Of a stretch of 40,188 bases of DNA, positions 3,128 through 9,601 are shown in pieces (within the stretch, counting starts at the first letter, position 1; each line of letters starts with the position of its first letter). The stretch comes from a virus. Taxonomy: Duplodnaviria; Caudoviricetes. The notes beneath the pieces were generated by a model, which searched no databases, was not told the origin of the DNA, and saw only the letters and a program-made list of their open reading frames with translations. The position numbers and the translations under genes are program-made. The stretch covers positions 1-40,188 of IMG/VR virus record IMGVR_UViG_3300032232_000455. The stretch is one strand, 5' to 3'.

Positions 3128-3437
3128 CCCTTGCTTAAGGGTAAAAGTGCAGGTCAGACCCCCACCACTATCAAATTTATGTGGGTAGAGATATACCGAT
3201 ACCGATACCAGCAGTTTAATAACCCTGGGGTGATAACTCACCCACTAGCAATGCTTGCTGTTTAAACAGTTAAGCACCTGCTTGCAAGGCTATGCATGCA
3301 GGCTTGGCTAGGACAAGGCAGGGCTAGGGCAGGCGAAGGCGCTGACTCTGTATAGCCTCGCGCTCTTTCATAGGATTCGCGCTCCCCCCCCAGCATGCAG
3401 GCTTGAGCATAAGTAGTTGAAAGTTCAACCATCGCCA

Positions 3438-3564
3438 TAAGTTACTGGCTAGTAAGTCGCTAAAGTCAGTTGTTTAACGACACTTTAGAGTTATGCCGAT
3501 ACAGTAAGAAACGAATTATCAGTGTATAGCACTGACTTTAGCCTTGTTACCACTCAGTAACTTA
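3438..3564. repeat. Long imperfect inverted repeat (33/34-bp arms, 60-bp spacer)
   Basis: TAAGTTACTG-N4-GTAA-N3/4-GCTAAAGTCAGT at 3438-3470 and its reverse complement at 3531-3564. Confidence 0.85.
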
Positions 3565-3691
3565 CGACTGTTTAAACTTTGGCTGTTCGCTGTTGGCTGT
3601 TTTTGCCCTCGATTTAGCCCTCAATCGGCTCGTGTCGCAAAAAAGTTTTATGCGTAGCGACCTGCGGTTTTATCTTTTTGGGCTGTATCTG

Positions 3692-3721
3692 TTGACACGA
3701 GTTTAAACAGGCGCGTATCTT
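3692..3721 (+). promoter_or_regulatory. Sigma-70/SigA-type early promoter with GTTTAAAC in the spacer
   Basis: TTGACA (3692-3697), 18 bp, TATCTT (3716-3721), then a 5' hairpin (tgtcgg/ccgaca) and the first early gene. Confidence 0.65.
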
Positions 3722-3762
3722 TCTCCTTGTCGGTTCAACCCCCGACAGACTGGATGCACCAA

Positions 3763-4296
3763 ATGCCTGTACTCAACCGCGAACAGTGGCTGGCAAGCCT
3801 TGCCATTGCTGTCCGCCCTCACATTGCTTCAATCATCCAAAACGGAGGCGATGAGGAATCTGCAATTCGCCTTTCTTGTGGCTTCCCTCCAAAATCAGGG
3901 CGCAAGGCTGTTTCAGCCTCAATCGTCCCTCCAACAGCATCAGCCGACTTTACAGCCGAGATTTTTGTGGCTCCGACTGTTGACGATGCCGAAACTGTTG
4001 CTCGCCTAATTCTGCCATTGCTCAAAATTGCTCAATCAGGCAACTGGCGCTCAGCCTCGGCTTCTGTTGCCGAACCTTTACAGACATTGCCCTCATGGAT
4101 TGAGCCAATTTTGGCTCGCCTTGGTGCATACCCTCATGCAAAAATCGAATTGACCGAGGCTCCAAAACAATCAACTCGCCTCATCAAGGTTGCCTGTTTA
4201 AACGACAACTACATTGCCCGAGTTTCTCGCTCAACCCTTGTGAATCTCGGCGCTCCAATCTGCCCTGCATGCCAACAATCACTAGTGGAGGCTTAA
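3763..4296 (+). CDS. SprT-like metalloprotease homologue, apparently lacking HExxH
   Basis: REQWL, RLSCGFP, EIFVAP, LGAYPHA, KQSTRLIK and C-terminal CPAC resemble phage SprT-like proteins; ATG 3763 preferred over TTG 3727. Confidence 0.55.
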   Translation: MPVLNREQWLASLAIAVRPHIASIIQNGGDEESAIRLSCGFPPKSGRKAVSASIVPPTASADFTAEIFVAPTVDDAETVARLILPLLKIAQSGNWRSASASVAEPLQTLPSWIEPILARLGAYPHAKIELTEAPKQSTRLIKVACLNDNYIARVSRSTLVNLGAPICPACQQSLVEA

Positions 4297-4300
4297 TCAA

Positions 4301-5074
4301 ATGTCACAATTCACTTACGGACTCGAGTTCGAGGTCAACGGAATCTCACCCTCTACGGCTTCAACTGTCCTCACTCAGGGCGGAATCAACTGTCTCGCCC
4401 CTCGAAATCAGCATGTGCTTTCAACCGAGTGGACAGCCGTTTATGACGGCTCAATCCAAGGAGCGGAAGTAGTTTCTCCAATCCTCAACGATGCCCGTTT
4501 AAACGAGGCTTCAACTGTTGCCCGCTTGCTTTTAAATGCAGGCGCAAAGGTTGACCGCTCAACTGGTTACCATGTCCACATTGGTTTCGATAGTTTTGGC
4601 GATACGCTCAACGACCGCTTCAACGCGCTTGCCAACTTCTACATCAACTGGCACACCGCTCACGAAACAATCGGCACCTTGGTTGCTCCAAGCCGTTTAA
4701 ACAACCGCTTCTGCAAGGTTCGCACTATTGCCGAGGCTCACGAGACAGCCGAGCAAATCCGAGCAGGTCGAATCGGAATCGGTGACCGCTATGTATCTCT
4801 CAATCTCGAGTCTTTTGACCGCCATGGCACAATCGAGGTTCGCCTACACCAAGGCACCTTGAATGGTCGCAAGGCTGTTGCTTGGGCAGAGTTCATTGCA
4901 GGACTCATTGACTACAGCAAGGCAAACAATCTGCTCGGAGCAACCTACTCACGAACAGACATCCGTTTAAACAACATCCAAACCCTGCTCGATGAAGTCG
5001 CACAAGACAACCTCGACATCCGAACAGCGGAATACCTCAAGCAACGCGCCTTGAGCCTACAAGGTCAGGCGTAA
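4301..5074 (+). CDS. Putative amidoligase (COOH-NH2 ligase, glutamine-synthetase-like fold)
   Basis: Motifs YGLEFE, DGSI, EVVSPIL, STGYHVH, RYVSLN, TIEVRLHQGTLN; GGAGG RBS. Confidence 0.88.
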   Translation: MSQFTYGLEFEVNGISPSTASTVLTQGGINCLAPRNQHVLSTEWTAVYDGSIQGAEVVSPILNDARLNEASTVARLLLNAGAKVDRSTGYHVHIGFDSFGDTLNDRFNALANFYINWHTAHETIGTLVAPSRLNNRFCKVRTIAEAHETAEQIRAGRIGIGDRYVSLNLESFDRHGTIEVRLHQGTLNGRKAVAWAEFIAGLIDYSKANNLLGATYSRTDIRLNNIQTLLDEVAQDNLDIRTAEYLKQRALSLQGQA

Positions 5075-5081
5075 GCCGACA

Positions 5082-5130
5082 GCCTGCCCCAAGTGGGCAA
5101 GCGAGGGAGCGTTACCCTCGGCAGGCACAA
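5082..5130 (+). ncRNA. tRNA-like minihelix (7-bp acceptor-like stem + 5-bp T-like stem with 7-nt loop); not a tRNA
   Basis: GCCTGCC/GGCAGGC and GAGGG-agcgtta-CCCTC followed by ACAA; intergenic. Confidence 0.45.
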
Positions 5131-5177
5131 ACAGATACGAGAGAGTCTCGTACTGTTTAAACAGATAGGACTGGAAA

Positions 5178-5333
5178 ATGAAAATCGAATACGCAATCTT
5201 TCAAGGTAGCCGTTGCATTGGTGTAAATCTTTTTGCATCAAGCATGAAAGAAATTAACAAGGCAATCGCCGAGTTAAATGTGGGCGAGTTAAAATTCACA
5301 GCACGCATCATAGCAATCAAGGCTGGTGTTTAA
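5178..5333 (+). CDS. Hypothetical protein (51 aa, MKIEYAIFQG...KAGV)
   Basis: Own translation; preceded by GGACTGGAA; stop codon lies inside GTTTAAAC. Confidence 0.7.
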   Translation: MKIEYAIFQGSRCIGVNLFASSMKEINKAIAELNVGELKFTARIIAIKAGV

Positions 5334-5335
5334 AC

Positions 5336-5425
5336 ATGGACATCTCAATCTTCGATGGTCGCTCGTTTCTCATCATTGGAATCATCGCCCTAACATGGGC
5401 ATGGTATTGGCTCGGCAATGAATAA
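5336..5425 (+). CDS. Small membrane peptide (29 aa, MDISIFDGRSFLIIGIIALTWAWYWLGNE)
   Basis: Own translation; coupled to both neighbours; one hydrophobic helix. Confidence 0.6.
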   Translation: MDISIFDGRSFLIIGIIALTWAWYWLGNE

Positions 5426-5603
5426 CGAATTGTTATACATCGTTGAGGGTGTAGACCCGAGCGGACGAAAGTTCGCTGGGGTTTACCCAAAGTCAGATGC
5501 GGATTACCTCGTTGCAAGTGACTGTTTAAACAAGGTTATTGGAACGCTCACCAATCGTGATACACTTAACTCATTAACGCCTAACAGACTGGAGAATAAA
5601 TAA
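5418..5603 (+). CDS. Hypothetical protein
   Basis: Overlaps the upstream stop and abuts the GATase start. Confidence 0.55.
   Translation: MNNELLYIVEGVDPSGRKFAGVYPKSDADYLVASDCLNKVIGTLTNRDTLNSLTPNRLENK
5539..5566 (+). promoter_or_regulatory. Putative internal promoter for the GATase gene
   Basis: TTGGAA, 16 bp, extended -10 TGaTACACT. Confidence 0.45.
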
Positions 5604-6410
5604 ATGTGTGGAATCGCAGGCTTCTGCCTTAACCCAAAGCATCATGTCAATACAACAGAGTTAGCATCGCAGATGCTTCTCGACATCGAACATCGTGGCT
5701 ATCACGCCACTGGTGTGGCATGGATTAACAAAGAGGGACGGCGTGCCATTACTAAGGCACCAATCTCGGCTTCTAAGTTCATTGCTACCAAGGCTGGTCA
5801 GAGTGTGTGCAAGGATGCAACAACAGCAATCCTGCATACACGCTGGGCAACTCAAGGTTCACCAACTGTAAACGATAACAACCACCCAATTCCTCGTGGC
5901 AAAATCGTACTCACTCACAACGGACACATCGCCAACGATGACCAACTGTTTAAACAACTCAAGGTCGGGCGCATCGGACAGGTAGACTCAGAGGCAGTCG
6001 CAGCATTGCTTGCCTTTACTCAGGGTCAACATCCTGCCGAGGTATTAACACGCATCCAAGGCAGTGCAGCATTGGCTTGGATTACACAAGACCAAGGCGA
6101 CACCTTGCACCTTGCTCGTGTATCCAACAGCCCACTGTGGATTGGTCAGACCTTGACTGGTTCACTGGTTTATGGTTCAACAGAGGAGACAATCGAGAAC
6201 GCAGGCATCATGCTCGGTTCGGATTTAGACTGGTCATACTCAGCAGAGGAAGGCGAGTACTTCAAGGTTAAGAACGGAAAGATTATTGAACATCAAAAGT
6301 TCAAGCCTTACCGCTCATCAGTCAGTCATGACTGGCGCAAGTATGCAATGGGAAAGTATGAGGATGAGTTAACCGAGCATGCAAGTTACTATGACTCGCA
6401 CTTATTCTAA
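5604..6410 (+). CDS. Class II (Ntn) glutamine amidotransferase
   Basis: N-terminal MCGIAG, HRG, HTRWATQG, NNHP, HNGHI and VDSE motifs. Confidence 0.92.
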   Translation: MCGIAGFCLNPKHHVNTTELASQMLLDIEHRGYHATGVAWINKEGRRAITKAPISASKFIATKAGQSVCKDATTAILHTRWATQGSPTVNDNNHPIPRGKIVLTHNGHIANDDQLFKQLKVGRIGQVDSEAVAALLAFTQGQHPAEVLTRIQGSAALAWITQDQGDTLHLARVSNSPLWIGQTLTGSLVYGSTEETIENAGIMLGSDLDWSYSAEEGEYFKVKNGKIIEHQKFKPYRSSVSHDWRKYAMGKYEDELTEHASYYDSHLF

Positions 6411-6423
6411 ACAATAAGAGACT

Positions 6424-6452
6424 AGCCCCTGCTTCGGCAGGGGTTTTTCTTT
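6424..6452 (+). terminator. Rho-independent terminator
   Basis: gcccctgc-TTCG-gcaggggt followed by a T-tract. Confidence 0.9.
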
Positions 6453-6479
6453 TGCCTTAGCACTCGCATCCAGAGACTG

Positions 6480-6780
6480 CTAATTGCATAGTGTTTAAAC
6501 ACATAAAAAGTTGACACCCGATTAACTACTATGGTTGTTAAATGTTTAAACAGTGCAGGAAATTACTCCAGGAAATCTGGTGCTGCATGCTGTTTAAACA
6601 AGGGTACTTGACACGGATGGTAAGGTAGGTTTTACCGCAGGTAAAACTAAAAGATAGATGCGGTTATGTTTAAACAAAAAAATAATTTAAAAAAGTTTTG
6701 GAATGTACTTGACACGCATTGCATACAGTATGAGATGATTCTTTTTGTAAGCAACCTTGCTTACCAAATAGATTGGAAAC
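6480..6780 (+). promoter_or_regulatory. Second early control region: 4x GTTTAAAC, 3x TTGACAC, 5' hairpin and GATTGGAA
   Basis: GTTTAAAC at 6493, 6544, 6592, 6668; TTGACAC at 6511, 6608, 6709; gtaagc/gcttac hairpin ~6747-6764. Confidence 0.6.
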
Positions 6781-6789
6781 TAGATTCAA

Positions 6790-6951
6790 ATGTTAACTTC
6801 AACAGACTTATTCGCTATCGTGATTCTGCTATTCGTATTGGTAGGAACACTCATCGCACTCATCGTAGGCAACCACGCACTCAACAACGACAACAAGAAC
6901 CTACGCAGAACAATTAAAATCTTGAAGGATGCACAGAAGGTGAGCAAGTAA
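6790..6951 (+). CDS. Small membrane protein (53 aa; TM helix + basic coiled tail)
   Basis: Own translation MLTSTDLFAIVILLFVLVGTLIALIVGNH...; stop abuts the next ATG. Confidence 0.7.
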   Translation: MLTSTDLFAIVILLFVLVGTLIALIVGNHALNNDNKNLRRTIKILKDAQKVSK

Positions 6952-7143
6952 ATGGCAGCATCAGTACATCAGAAGGCACAGGGCTTGGCAGTCAGGTACC
7001 TATGTCACAAGTATCATGAGGAGTACACAGCAAAGTATCGTGAATTCGTAATCGAAATGGGTGGCAAGGTGCATCCAACAAATGCCGAGCGCATCAAGAA
7101 CCTCAAAGCACAGATTGCAAAACTAGAAAGCGAGGGTGTTTAA
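6952..7143 (+). CDS. Hypothetical protein
   Basis: ORF track; tightly coupled with neighbours. Confidence 0.75.
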   Translation: MAASVHQKAQGLAVRYLCHKYHEEYTAKYREFVIEMGGKVHPTNAERIKNLKAQIAKLESEGV

Positions 7144-7145
7144 AC

Positions 7146-7400
7146 ATGTTAGCAACTAAAACTTACCAAGGCTGGGCAAACTATAAGACATGGAATGTGG
7201 CACTCATAATTAACAACGAGTACAAACTGTACTTATCAGCCTGTGATTTCATGAAACTATACAAGGGTGCTACCCCATACAAGTCTTGGGTTGAGCATGC
7301 TGGATTAAAAGATAAAGAAACTATTGACAGCGTGCCATTCATTGACGATAAACTATCTTACGCAGAACTAAATCAAATGATGAAGGGGCTGAACTCATGA
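7146..7400 (+). CDS. Conserved phage hypothetical protein (Y.GW.NY.TWNVAL family)
   Basis: Motif YQGWANYKTWNVAL resembles a recurrent small phage protein family. Confidence 0.75.
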   Translation: MLATKTYQGWANYKTWNVALIINNEYKLYLSACDFMKLYKGATPYKSWVEHAGLKDKETIDSVPFIDDKLSYAELNQMMKGLNS

Positions 7401-7552
7401 CACTGCTATGGAAAGCCGAGGTTACATCCGAGATGGTTGCACATCTTAGTGAGGAGAAAAAGGTGGAACTGTTCAGAGATTTATCAGAGGCTGTTGATGC
7501 GATTGGTGCAAAGGCAGAGGTGGGCAGGGAGTTTAAACATGACACCAACTAA
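7397..7552 (+). CDS. Hypothetical protein (51 aa, MTLLWKAEVTSEM...)
   Basis: Own translation; ATGA overlap with the upstream stop. Confidence 0.65.
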   Translation: MTLLWKAEVTSEMVAHLSEEKKVELFRDLSEAVDAIGAKAEVGREFKHDTN

Positions 7553-7685
7553 ACTGCTTGTCTCTACTACACGCACACAAATAAAGGTTAGCGATGAACT
7601 AACAGATGATGAACTGCTTGCGATGATTGACGAAATTGCTCGCAAACTACAAGCAAGGGAGGAAAGCAAATGCCTAAAGGCGTAG
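7539..7685 (+). CDS. Hypothetical protein (48 aa, MTPTKLLVST...)
   Basis: ATG immediately after GGGAGTTTAAAC; C-terminal part of ORF 7437..7685. Confidence 0.6.
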   Translation: MTPTKLLVSTTRTQIKVSDELTDDELLAMIDEIARKLQAREESKCLKA

Positions 7686-8047
7686 TGCTATACACCGATG
7701 GAACCTATGAGGAAAAGGATTTCAATGGACTCAAAGACATGCAAGGTGCAGTCAATGGGTTGATTGAGATTGTCCACATGTACGATTACTATGGAGATGA
7801 AGTACTCACAGGCTATGTAAACGAGGAAGGCATCATGCTTGAACTACCACTGAACACAGTGGCGAGCGCGTTGTCTTTCATGTTCGGCAATAACCCAATG
7901 ATGCTTGGCAATATGATTGTGCTAGGCAAGGATGATGGAGAAGGCAATGACACAGACATACCGCAAGACATCCTCGCGTTCATCAAGAAAGTATGCGCGG
8001 ACAAGAGCAAGGTTGAGGCTGAGTATGCTGAACAAACTAACGCCTAG
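7670..8047 (+). CDS. DUF3846-like hypothetical protein
   Basis: MQGAVNGLIE, YVNEEG...LPLN..AS, GNMIVLG pattern; GGAGG RBS. Confidence 0.7.
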   Translation: MPKGVVLYTDGTYEEKDFNGLKDMQGAVNGLIEIVHMYDYYGDEVLTGYVNEEGIMLELPLNTVASALSFMFGNNPMMLGNMIVLGKDDGEGNDTDIPQDILAFIKKVCADKSKVEAEYAEQTNA

Positions 8048-8471
8048 TGGTAGATTGTGGCTGGTAACAGTCATAGTATTCGGGTTGGCAATCGCATTAT
8101 TCCCCCGCGATTCCCGCTTAGTCATCCCGTTTAAACACTCAGCCATGTCGGGACAAGTGGTTGCTTATTACACAAACGATTACCAACGCTATGCCATAGA
8201 CCAACTAACCAAAGACGGACGGCTTGAACAGTGGTCATGTCTGCATGATTTATGGACACGAGAAAGTAACTGGCGACCAGCAGCATTGAACAAGTCAAGC
8301 AAAGCAGCAGGTATTGCACAGTTAATGCCTGTTACTTGGGGCTTGGTTGGTCACTCACAAACAGAGGACGGTTATGCACAGGTAGATGCAGGCTTGGCAT
8401 ACATAGAAAGAAAATACGGAGGCAACATCTGCAAGGCATACGCTTCGAGTCTGTCGAGGGGGTGGTACTAA
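8025..8471 (+). CDS. Membrane-anchored lytic transglycosylase (SLT/lysozyme-like, actinobacterial type)
   Basis: N-terminal TM; CL..LW.RES.W...A.N..S.A.GIAQ, GLAYIE..YG and C-terminal GWY. Confidence 0.85.
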   Translation: MLNKLTPSGRLWLVTVIVFGLAIALFPRDSRLVIPFKHSAMSGQVVAYYTNDYQRYAIDQLTKDGRLEQWSCLHDLWTRESNWRPAALNKSSKAAGIAQLMPVTWGLVGHSQTEDGYAQVDAGLAYIERKYGGNICKAYASSLSRGWY

Positions 8472-8665
8472 TGACACAATATCAAACACTCAGAGAAGAA
8501 CTTAAAGCACACCTAGTTGTAACTGGTTTATGTTTAAACGCAGAGAATCCCCACGATGCGGTAGTGGTTCGCTCAACAAAAGCGGACATCGTGATTGACA
8601 CACTATTGGATTATCTGATTGGGGCAGGATATGCAAGCGTTTCAAAAACTACCGACCATACCTAA
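8471..8665 (+). CDS. Hypothetical protein
   Basis: TAATG coupling to the upstream gene. Confidence 0.65.
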   Translation: MTQYQTLREELKAHLVVTGLCLNAENPHDAVVVRSTKADIVIDTLLDYLIGAGYASVSKTTDHT

Positions 8666-9002
8666 GTATCACAGAATCATGCAACAAAAGATTGTAAAGG
8701 GGTTGATTTACTATCGGCTCAACTACAACGGAGAAGTTATGTCGAAAGGTGCATGTCGAGGTTCAAACACAGAGATGTTTTACCCCGAGATTGTGCAGTA
8801 CACACGAGTAGAGACTAAGTTCTATGACAAACTATGTAAGGATTGCCCAATCAAACGGGCATGCTTGGAGTGGGGCTTAGTTCATGAAAGGCAAGGGGTA
8901 TGGGGTGGCACAACGCCCGATGCTAGAGTAGGAATACGCAAGATGCTAGGCTGGGCAGTGACAGACCCACATACATTTAGCGATTTGGCATGGCGTTCGT
9001 AG
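8631..9002 (+). CDS. whiB: WhiB-family Fe-S transcription factor
   Basis: C...CxxC...C pattern with GVWGG motif. Confidence 0.92.
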   Translation: MQAFQKLPTIPKYHRIMQQKIVKGLIYYRLNYNGEVMSKGACRGSNTEMFYPEIVQYTRVETKFYDKLCKDCPIKRACLEWGLVHERQGVWGGTTPDARVGIRKMLGWAVTDPHTFSDLAWRS

Positions 9003-9013
9003 TCTGTTAGGCT
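8985..9013 (+). promoter_or_regulatory. SigA-type promoter pointing into the 9021-9066 hairpin
   Basis: TTGGCA, 17 bp, TAGGCT with TG extended -10; no + strand ORF downstream. Confidence 0.6.
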
Positions 9014-9019
9014 ACAACA

Positions 9020-9066
9020 GAGAAGCACCGCTTGAGGTTCCAGTCCCTCGCGGTGCTTCTTCTTTT
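9020..9066 (+). ncRNA. Candidate small regulatory RNA; also the terminator between convergent modules
   Basis: 11-bp stem agaagcaccgc/gcggtgcttct, inner gagg/cctc, loop TTCCAGTC, T-rich tail; loop complementary to the early-gene RBS motif. Confidence 0.55.
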
Positions 9067-9601
9067 ATACTAAGTTAATTTCTTTCTGCTTAGCCAGCAT
9101 AAATACTTCATCGGCTAAGTCATTGAGGTCGCCATGATTAAGAATCAAATCATCAAAGCGCCAGTTATCCATTGCAGTTTCAGATGCATGTAAGTTCACA
9201 GGCTTGTGTCCTTCACGCTGTACACGCCACACCTGCCCACCCTTGTCAATGATTGCTTGTGCTTCATTAGGAAAGCGAACATCCGCAAACACAACGCGCT
9301 CTTGCTGCACTTGTTTAAACGCTAAGTCAACCCAGAAGTTTTCGCCAAACATTTCTCTACCAACTTCGGTGCCAAACACCTGCAACAAACGGCGCACCTC
9401 AGGGTTGTGCTTGGCTAATTCCCATCCATAATCATTAACCAAATGAGATAACGGTTCGTGACCAACGACAGGGTTTAAACGCATCAGTGCTTCACGCATT
9501 GGGTCAGCAAATGATACGCGCTTGTATCCATAGTTTAAACACAACAGTTCAGCAACTGTATCTTTACCTGACTGTGCGTATCCGCTCAAACCTATAATCA
9601 T
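9065..9601 (-). CDS. Deoxynucleoside monophosphate kinase
   Basis: IIGLSGYAQSGKDT P-loop, SFADP, RRLLQVFGTE, DVRFPNEA. Confidence 0.9.
   Translation of the reverse strand: MIIGLSGYAQSGKDTVAELLCLNYGYKRVSFADPMREALMRLNPVVGHEPLSHLVNDYGWELAKHNPEVRRLLQVFGTEVGREMFGENFWVDLAFKQVQQERVVFADVRFPNEAQAIIDKGGQVWRVQREGHKPVNLHASETAMDNWRFDDLILNHGDLNDLADEVFMLAKQKEINLV

Follow-up and report, generated by a model that had tools for sequence, protein, structure and literature searches.

The stretch of 40,188 nucleotides analysed here in full (the window; positions 1 to 40,188 of the virus record IMGVR_UViG_3300032232_000455) is a complete circular phage genome with a 123-nt terminal overlap and 45% GC. Behind its whiB gene lies a hairpin with an exposed 8-nt loop complementary to a short motif, here called the tag, in the start regions of four early genes of the same phage. 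Judged by comparison with related sequences, this post-whiB element is real, conserved and co-evolving with the tags. We estimate at roughly two chances in three that it represents a separately transcribed RNA of ~48 nt, which would pair in trans with the early-gene tags and block ribosome loading. A small RNA (sRNA) is the likely identity because the loop is complementary to the phage's own early ribosome-binding sites (RBSs), and changes in the two have mostly gone together.

The hairpin at positions 9020-9061 has a predicted folding energy of −26.3 kcal/mol (z −6.0), and 0 of 200 shuffled sequences were as stable; the exposed loop proposed in an earlier reading made from the sequence alone is borne out by the fold. 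The same reading had considered it probable that the hairpin also acts as a terminator, and the anatomy of a Rho-independent terminator is indeed present, consisting of a GC-rich stem followed by a U-tract; the terminator scan omits it because of the bulged stem. It had also seen no open reading frame (ORF) behind the hairpin. On the minus strand, no ORF is conserved behind the loop (64 of 144 without a start codon, 4 with ATG). A small antisense ORF (9028-8882) using the loop as its RBS was considered and rejected for the same lack of conservation. The promoter hexamers TTGGCA and TAGGCT, with their 17-nt spacer and TG extension, lie exactly where the sequence-only reading had placed them (8985-9013), and the 5′ end of the RNA would fall at 9019-9021 according to the spacing from the −10 box. 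Calling this promoter near-consensus was overstated: it matches the consensus at 8 of 12 positions plus the TG, is not listed by the promoter scan, and its TTGGCA is variable and not retained in close relatives. In the clade of the window, a further 7-bp hairpin at 8999-9015 overlaps the whiB stop codon and the −10 box, and could form in read-through RNA only.

All four proposed target sites (3748, 5168, 5587 and 6771; Table 1) are present, and both deviations are compatible with G-U pairing. Their position at the start regions of four genes was confirmed, with one correction for gene 5178, whose tag cannot be the Shine-Dalgarno (SD) sequence because it ends 1 nt before the ATG, and sits in the spacer behind the SD. 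The chance of finding GAYTGGA at at least 4 of 14 early starts is ~2e-8, or ~3e-6 given the GGA core, for a motif that was picked post hoc. After ranking the loop duplexes of 56 crudely called genes, using the best of several candidate starts per gene, the top three positions were taken by 5178, 5604 and 3763. The gene caller missed gene 6790, whose site is a perfect GACTGGA in the relatives L003 and L018. A late ORF (TTG 17097) likewise has GATTGGAA upstream. The accessibility-corrected pairing energies of the four targets, calculated without a loop-topology penalty, are −3.5 (3748), −8.2, −8.7 and −6.1 kcal/mol.

Conservation of the element was analysed in 323 sequences, namely the window and 322 fetched loci, many of which are redundant; related sequences are not independent. 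We placed 273 of the 323 by an SLT-whiB gene pair or a strong whiB match, dropped the 50 unplaceable ones and sorted the loci by seed, using a seed list built from the variants seen. A seed-bearing segment is present at most 130 nt from the whiB stop codon in 271 of the 273 placed loci (redundant contigs included); one of the two exceptions is a contig ending there, the other is unrelated. At −8 to +14 of the whiB stop codon, the −10-like pattern TAnnnT is found in 131/131 distinct junctions versus 20.5% of 2620 control windows, the stop codon possibly supplying the TA in a few junctions. A TG extension or a TTG −35 element is additionally present in 123 of these junctions versus 1.7% of control windows, and the RNA structure begins ~6-8 nt downstream of the conserved −10 box. 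Within 11 diverse hairpins of the window class, which were picked by hand, the loop is invariant (11/11) at a mean column identity of 49%, and 9 of the 10 consensus pairs show two-sided changes. The properties expected of a trans-encoded anti-RBS sRNA are thus found: a promoter of its own, as judged by conservation only, a terminator of its own without a conserved ORF, and an exposed seed complementary to and co-varying with start regions, from which one subclade with loop TACCAGTC is excepted. Four sequencing runs compared with the window all consist of assembled contigs; in the two that are labelled as RNA, coding and non-coding parts are covered alike and in small shares, a pattern that does not bear on transcription.

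Many members of the family possess an extra hairpin at the 5′ side, resulting in predicted RNAs of ~90-110 nt. This optional hairpin directly follows the whiB stop codon (e.g., L023 4480-4530 on the minus strand, L059, L070, L078, L100, L139 and others). Its purine loop, which reads GAAGGGGAAG or GAACGCGAAAC, is conserved and common to both main seed classes, and possibly represents a protein-binding or tertiary-contact element.

The co-variation of loop and early RBS in relatives was assessed in those distinct loci whose upstream sequence spans 4 kb or more. At the early starts, GACTGGA predominates in all 49 loci with the loop TCCAGTC (134 sites vs. 0 for GACAGGA), and GACAGGA in all 44 with the loop TCCTGTC (302 sites vs. 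3 for GACTGGA). Because the TCCTGTC class forms one clade on a quick SLT tree (Shimodaira-Hasegawa-like approximate likelihood ratio test, SH-aLRT, 98), the switch between the two loops counts as one evolutionary event. Other RNAs contain a second seed in an added CCTTTCGTC segment. Of these two-seed loci, 10/11 show GACGAAAGG at early starts, the eleventh containing the G-U variant GACGGAAGG, compared with 0/92 others (0/48 one-seed and 0/44 TCCTGTC loci) and 0/17 within the same clade. RNAs with one seed and with two are intermingled on the SLT tree, and the orthologue of the first early gene (3763) has GACGAAAGG in two-seed phages, as seen in the corresponding difference between L184 and L234. 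For the gene of a class II glutamine amidotransferase (GATase), 40 distinct upstream regions of orthologues were compared, and 39 of them contain GACTGGA; the fortieth, L201, contains AAAGGAGATAAC instead and its loop reads GTTATCTCCTT, which means that loop and RBS changed together. Finally, L022 shows the loop AGTCCTCC and, on partial data, GAAGGACTA at two starts. Loop and early RBS therefore co-vary in four seed types, in three of them cleanly and in L022 on partial data. Exact-pattern scans for further members of the rare seed classes yielded no new usable genome, and GATGAAAGG in L243 and L258 appears to be coding-constrained and was left uncounted.

The order of the genes bears on whether the pairing occurs in trans. 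An ordinary intrinsic terminator behind the GATase gene separates three of the four targets from the hairpin, and terminator-like hairpins were detected at this place in 53/53 distinct 3′ ends by a permissive test without a control rate. The loop of this terminator varies freely in relatives, unlike the post-whiB loop. The transcript with the three targets is predicted to end 2.6 kb before the hairpin and, because the terminator lies between them, pairing would be in trans. An alternative that we consider unlikely accepts the pairing, but takes the hairpin as the 3′ end of the whiB early mRNA, acting by cis fold-back or as a decay fragment of the 3′ untranslated region. The hairpin does terminate the whiB unit by prediction, target 6790 is on the same predicted transcript, the window promoter scores 8/12 only, and similar hairpins of cultured phages (see below) lie within mRNA leaders. 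Against this stand the −10 box at the right spacing in every distinct junction and the extra 5′ hairpin of many relatives, which begins just past the −10 box; moreover, pure cis action is excluded by the three targets upstream of the conserved terminator. The single trans-acting sRNA of the sequence-only reading is thus favoured by its conserved separate promoter and the GATase terminator, with one subclade showing an uncompensated loop change as the part that does not fit.

We propose that a host sigma-type promoter would give rise to a stable, terminator-shaped RNA, whose 8-nt loop would nucleate the pairing. Above the bulge, the upper stem is weak and may then open to extend the duplex, to 9-11 bp at GGACTGGAA(CC) sites and to 13 bp in L201, which would occlude the SD or the SD-AUG spacer. 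Repression would be the default outcome by analogy with the actinobacterial RNA B11 (PMC10470900). Accumulation of the RNA would turn down the first early genes in a delayed feedback loop, i.e., those for the zinc-ribbon-like first gene product, the GATase and small ORFs. The hairpin would double as a terminator, ending the second early unit and, in the window, probably the convergent replication arm as well. As for the role of the RNA, we prefer a delayed feedback closing the first early phase, with the exclusion of phages of the same seed as the main alternative. It seems rather unlikely that the RNA pairs with the tags in another role, such as silencing superinfecting phages of the same seed, quieting a carrier state or altering mRNA stability. 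At least five seed/tag types in the family and one in the Streptomyces phages of cluster BF recall the specificity of the C4 RNAs of phages P1 and P7, and the timing is not obviously delayed because the promoter looks like a host-sigma type. However, lysis of the host is documented for the relatives E7 and F5 (PMC10202952), and TCCAGTC is retained across deep branches, which is slower than expected of diversifying immunity groups.

Other explanations dispense with an RNA effector. The motif might be bound by a RegA/CsrA-like repressor or serve as a DNA operator, the hairpin being a decoy or operator with GACUGGAA as its minus-strand loop. A protein-bound motif of this kind would equally predict co-variation; the window's minus strand forms an equally good fold (z −4.6), transcription of the replication arm runs into the hairpin there, and the GGA in the loop resembles CsrA sites. 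We nevertheless regard this explanation as improbable, since promoter, U-tract and G-U bias indicate the plus strand, and the orientation of the hairpin flips with its position in E7 and F5. It would also require a new protein specificity for each of the seeds TCCAGTC, CCTTTCGTC and ATCTCCTT. In L029, L030, L032, L035 and L037, the hairpin is found 3′ of whiB even with plus-strand sequence and a plain terminator before the dNMP (deoxynucleoside monophosphate) kinase gene, which would block a minus-strand transcript. The G-U bias was seen in the stems of 73 hairpins, which contain 84 G-U vs. 47 A-C pairs (40 vs. 10 hairpins) and therefore favour the plus strand with modest support. A bidirectional terminator of the ordinary kind, placed between the convergent modules and with a loop matching the RBSs by chance or as a captured RBS cassette, has the terminator anatomy and the position at the convergence point of the window in its favour, but is very improbable and largely refuted by the loop-RBS co-variation and the variable loops of ordinary terminators in the same genomes; the hairpin also follows whiB in relatives whose convergence point lies elsewhere. 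A primase recognition site, suggested by loops ending in GTC and by analogy with the T7 primase site, was rejected because it leaves the start-codon spacing and the ATCTCCTT seed unexplained.

Several observations weigh against a trans-acting sRNA. Net pairing at 3748 is weak, and only 4 of the ~14 early genes of the window carry the tag. The wobble bias of the target variants is mixed, with 17 C>T changes in the GACTGGA class, but 12 G>A changes at the edge, and the variants of the GACAGGA class show a mixed pattern as well. Strand polarity is modest, the minimum free energy favouring the plus strand in 44/73 and the minus strand in 29/73 hairpins. The subclade with loop TACCAGTC (8 loci with at least 4 kb) retains GACTGGA at 31 sites vs. 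2 with GACTGGT, which leaves one seed position mismatched and uncompensated. The hairpins of E7/F5 and of the BF phages lack a U-tract and lie inside a 5′ leader. Because the main TCCAGTC/TCCTGTC switch happened only once, L201 stands for a single genome and the first genes are missing from L022, the number of independent events amounts to ~3-4.

Table 1. Positions of the predicted RNA, its proposed targets, neighbouring features and related hairpins of cultured phages.
Feature	Position	Strand	Remarks
−35 hexamer TTGGCA of predicted sRNA promoter, within whiB 3′ end	8985..8990	+	sequence
Extended −10, TG-n-TAGGCT	9005..9013	+	TG 9005-9006, TAGGCT 9008-9013, 17-nt spacer from −35
Predicted ~48-nt small RNA	9019..9067	+	lower stem, UU bulge, 4-bp upper stem, seed loop, U-tract
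Seed loop UUCCAGUC / TTCCAGTC, 8 nt	9038..9045	+	unpaired p>=0.98
U-tract of predicted intrinsic terminator	9060..9066	+	overlaps stop codon of convergent dNMP kinase gene
Target GACTGGA	3748..3754	+	before first early gene, ATG 3763 (phrog_6361, unknown function)
Target GGACTGGAA	5168..5176	+	spacer before ATG 5178 (51-aa ORF); best duplex in genome
Target GACTGGAG	5587..5594	+	before class II GATase gene (ATG 5604)
Target GATTGGAA	6771..6778	+	before 53-aa ORF with hydrophobic N-terminus (ATG 6790)
Sigma-70-type early promoter TTGACA-18-TATCTT	3692..3721	+	heads first early transcription unit
Ordinary intrinsic terminator after GATase gene	6424..6453	+	three targets upstream, hairpin downstream
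whiB (start uncertain), final protein gene of early module	8631..9002	+	PF02467; 3′ end contains −35 element
dNMP kinase gene, last of convergent replication arm	9065..9601	−	PF21448, phrog_139
E7/F5 hairpins	L332 31633-31688; L333 32675-32740	+; −	head of replication arm
Cluster BF Streptomyces phage hairpin	L330 37840-37945; L331 38397-38505	−; −	CU-rich loop complementary to shared early RBS
Reverse SAS (start-associated sequence) hairpin of cluster K1 phage Anaya	L323 31800-31905 (Anaya 59800-59905)		between genes 96 and 97; preceded by a second, strong hairpin

The early module on the plus strand (3727-9002) codes for the unknown first protein, an amidoligase, the GATase, DUF7249, DUF3846, SLT and WhiB proteins. 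It is met head-on by a minus-strand arm with genes for the dNMP kinase, a sigma-70 region 4 protein, primase, DnaB-like helicase, capsid and terminase. The amidoligase and GATase genes (4301-6410) form a pair in the front part of the early module; the GATase gene has the most strongly conserved tag, and the pair is absent from the examined loci of the TCCTGTC class. Between the GATase terminator and gene 6790 (6500-6730), three TTGACA hexamers are interleaved with copies of GTTTAAAC, likely representing the promoter cluster of the second early unit. The palindrome GTTTAAAC occurs in 37 copies spanning 3260-39537, most densely at 3260-8539 (mean 1.0 and maximum 6 in shuffled sequences), often immediately 5′ of start codons and also inside the early promoter spacer. 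It is almost missing from relatives with the TCCTGTC loop, where CTTAAGAC adjoins the RBS instead.

The closest cultured relatives are the Planktophila phages E7 and F5 (capsid 69%, terminase 47%) and the Streptomyces phages of cluster BF (terminase ~50%). Because of this kinship and the presence of whiB, the host is inferred to be a freshwater actinobacterium (Nanopelagicales) (PMC10202952). An SLT search of genome contigs for the host gave no match; a capsid search matched one Actinomycetota and one Microsaccharimonas contig, both from metagenome-assembled genomes, and a 16S gene was not found in G001. Scans of 22 distinct proteins revealed no integrase.

The cultured phages contain hairpins which we regard as analogues of the predicted window RNA. 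E7 and F5 carry GACAGGA at 7 and 6 early starts, respectively, and their first replication gene is tagged as well; one extra GACAGGA copy in the replication arm of E7 was rejected as an RBS, lying inside the exonuclease ORF. Their hairpin resembles that of the window in its long stem, UU bulge, GAG/CUC upper stem and a loop with CUCCUGUC (z −6.6 and −6.0). It is located at the head of the replication arm, where it follows a long AT-rich stretch and precedes a matching RBS by 25 nt. It lies on the opposite strand, and the strand of the downstream genes again carries the complement of the early RBS. In the BF phages WRightOn and Immanuel3, GGGAGAGA precedes 5 and 9, respectively, of 15 genes of the early arm; the same arm contains a single reverse copy, which lies in the loop of an intergenic hairpin (z −3.7 and −2.8) present in 29 BF records. 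In cluster K phages, the SAS is an asymmetric repeat over the RBS of non-structural genes that extends beyond the 16S pairing; K1 phages contain one copy in reverse. Its function was left open between RNA and protein binding, and no RNA gene is proposed in the accessible text (both PMC3203893). In the 33 kb fetched of Anaya, the lone reverse SAS forms a 10-nt hairpin loop with a z-score of −1.1 alone and −5.5 together with a neighbouring hairpin.

Taken together, these cases would allow the tentative and rather speculative generalisation that actinophages mark chosen early RBSs with a re-programmable private address, which is read by one hairpin RNA. Seed and address would be rewritten together, a second seed would address further genes, the seed/address pairs would define groups of RNA-based shut-off and exclusion, and the device would account both for the cluster K SAS repeats and for the RBS that the BF phages share. 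A direct test would then be available for the question open since 2011 of what binds the SAS repeats. For the seed/RBS pairs, compensatory changes are already recorded in nature. The cultured carriers, i.e., the Planktophila phages E7/F5 and the 29 records of BF phages, offer themselves as test systems. In actinobacteria, a hairpin of ~50 nt could serve as a compact translational switch if combined with orthogonal seed/RBS pairs.

Among known systems, searches of the open-access literature revealed neither this post-whiB RNA nor any phage sRNA that co-evolves with a private RBS tag. By its sequence, the predicted RNA would act like the B11/6C RNA or the C4 RNA of phage P1, and it belongs to neither: the window has no Rfam match at the gathering score, E-value scans giving sub-threshold hairpin matches only, and it contains a single hairpin with the single loop UUCCAGUC. 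B11/6C is an actinobacterial RNA whose unpaired loops bind the RBSs of many mRNAs and repress them, as proven by compensatory mutations (PMC10470900). The likeness lies in the actinobacterial setting, inferred for our phage, and in the loop-RBS complementarity, with repression predicted for the window RNA. B11 belongs to the host, and its two C-run loops are directed against G-rich sites (PMC10470900). Unlike it, the window RNA would be phage-encoded, with one loop (two in a subclade) and a private seed of 7-11 nt targeting the phage's own early genes. C4 of P1/P7 is a trans-acting phage RNA, whose loops occlude an RBS and vary among relatives together with their targets, a change of 4 nt limiting cross-talk (PMC5320573). 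The window RNA shares with it the loops complementary to phage mRNA that differ between relatives along with the targets. C4 is, however, a three-stem RNA with a′ and b′ loops, processed by RNase P in temperate-phage immunity (PMC5320573), whereas the RNA predicted here is one hairpin resembling a terminator, with 4 to 13 targets dispersed over start regions, and the cultured relatives E7 and F5 are lytic.

Very few regulatory RNAs of phages have been characterised so far, among them PreS of lambda and VpdS of VP882, which are phage-encoded base-pairing sRNAs with multiple targets; PreS depends on Hfq and acts mainly on host targets, and the accessible text mentions no shared co-evolving RBS tag (bioRxiv 10.1101/2024.10.31.621285). 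With the cluster K phages, the window shares an asymmetric start-linked repeat in non-structural genes and a lone reverse copy; the differences are the unrelated sequence and phage group and the Anaya hairpin, weak on its own in the one genome examined. The 13-bp SAS consensus is not found in the window tags, which are different 7-11-mers (ESAS-like inverted repeats were not searched for). In phage T4, the early genes share an RBS feature, through which a phage protein silences them, either the nuclease RegB or the repressor RegA. The same logic is predicted for the window, with an RNA in place of the protein effector of T4. If our interpretation is true, the post-whiB hairpin would be an RNA counterpart of the RegB/RegA early shut-off, employed by phages which likely infect the most abundant freshwater bacteria.
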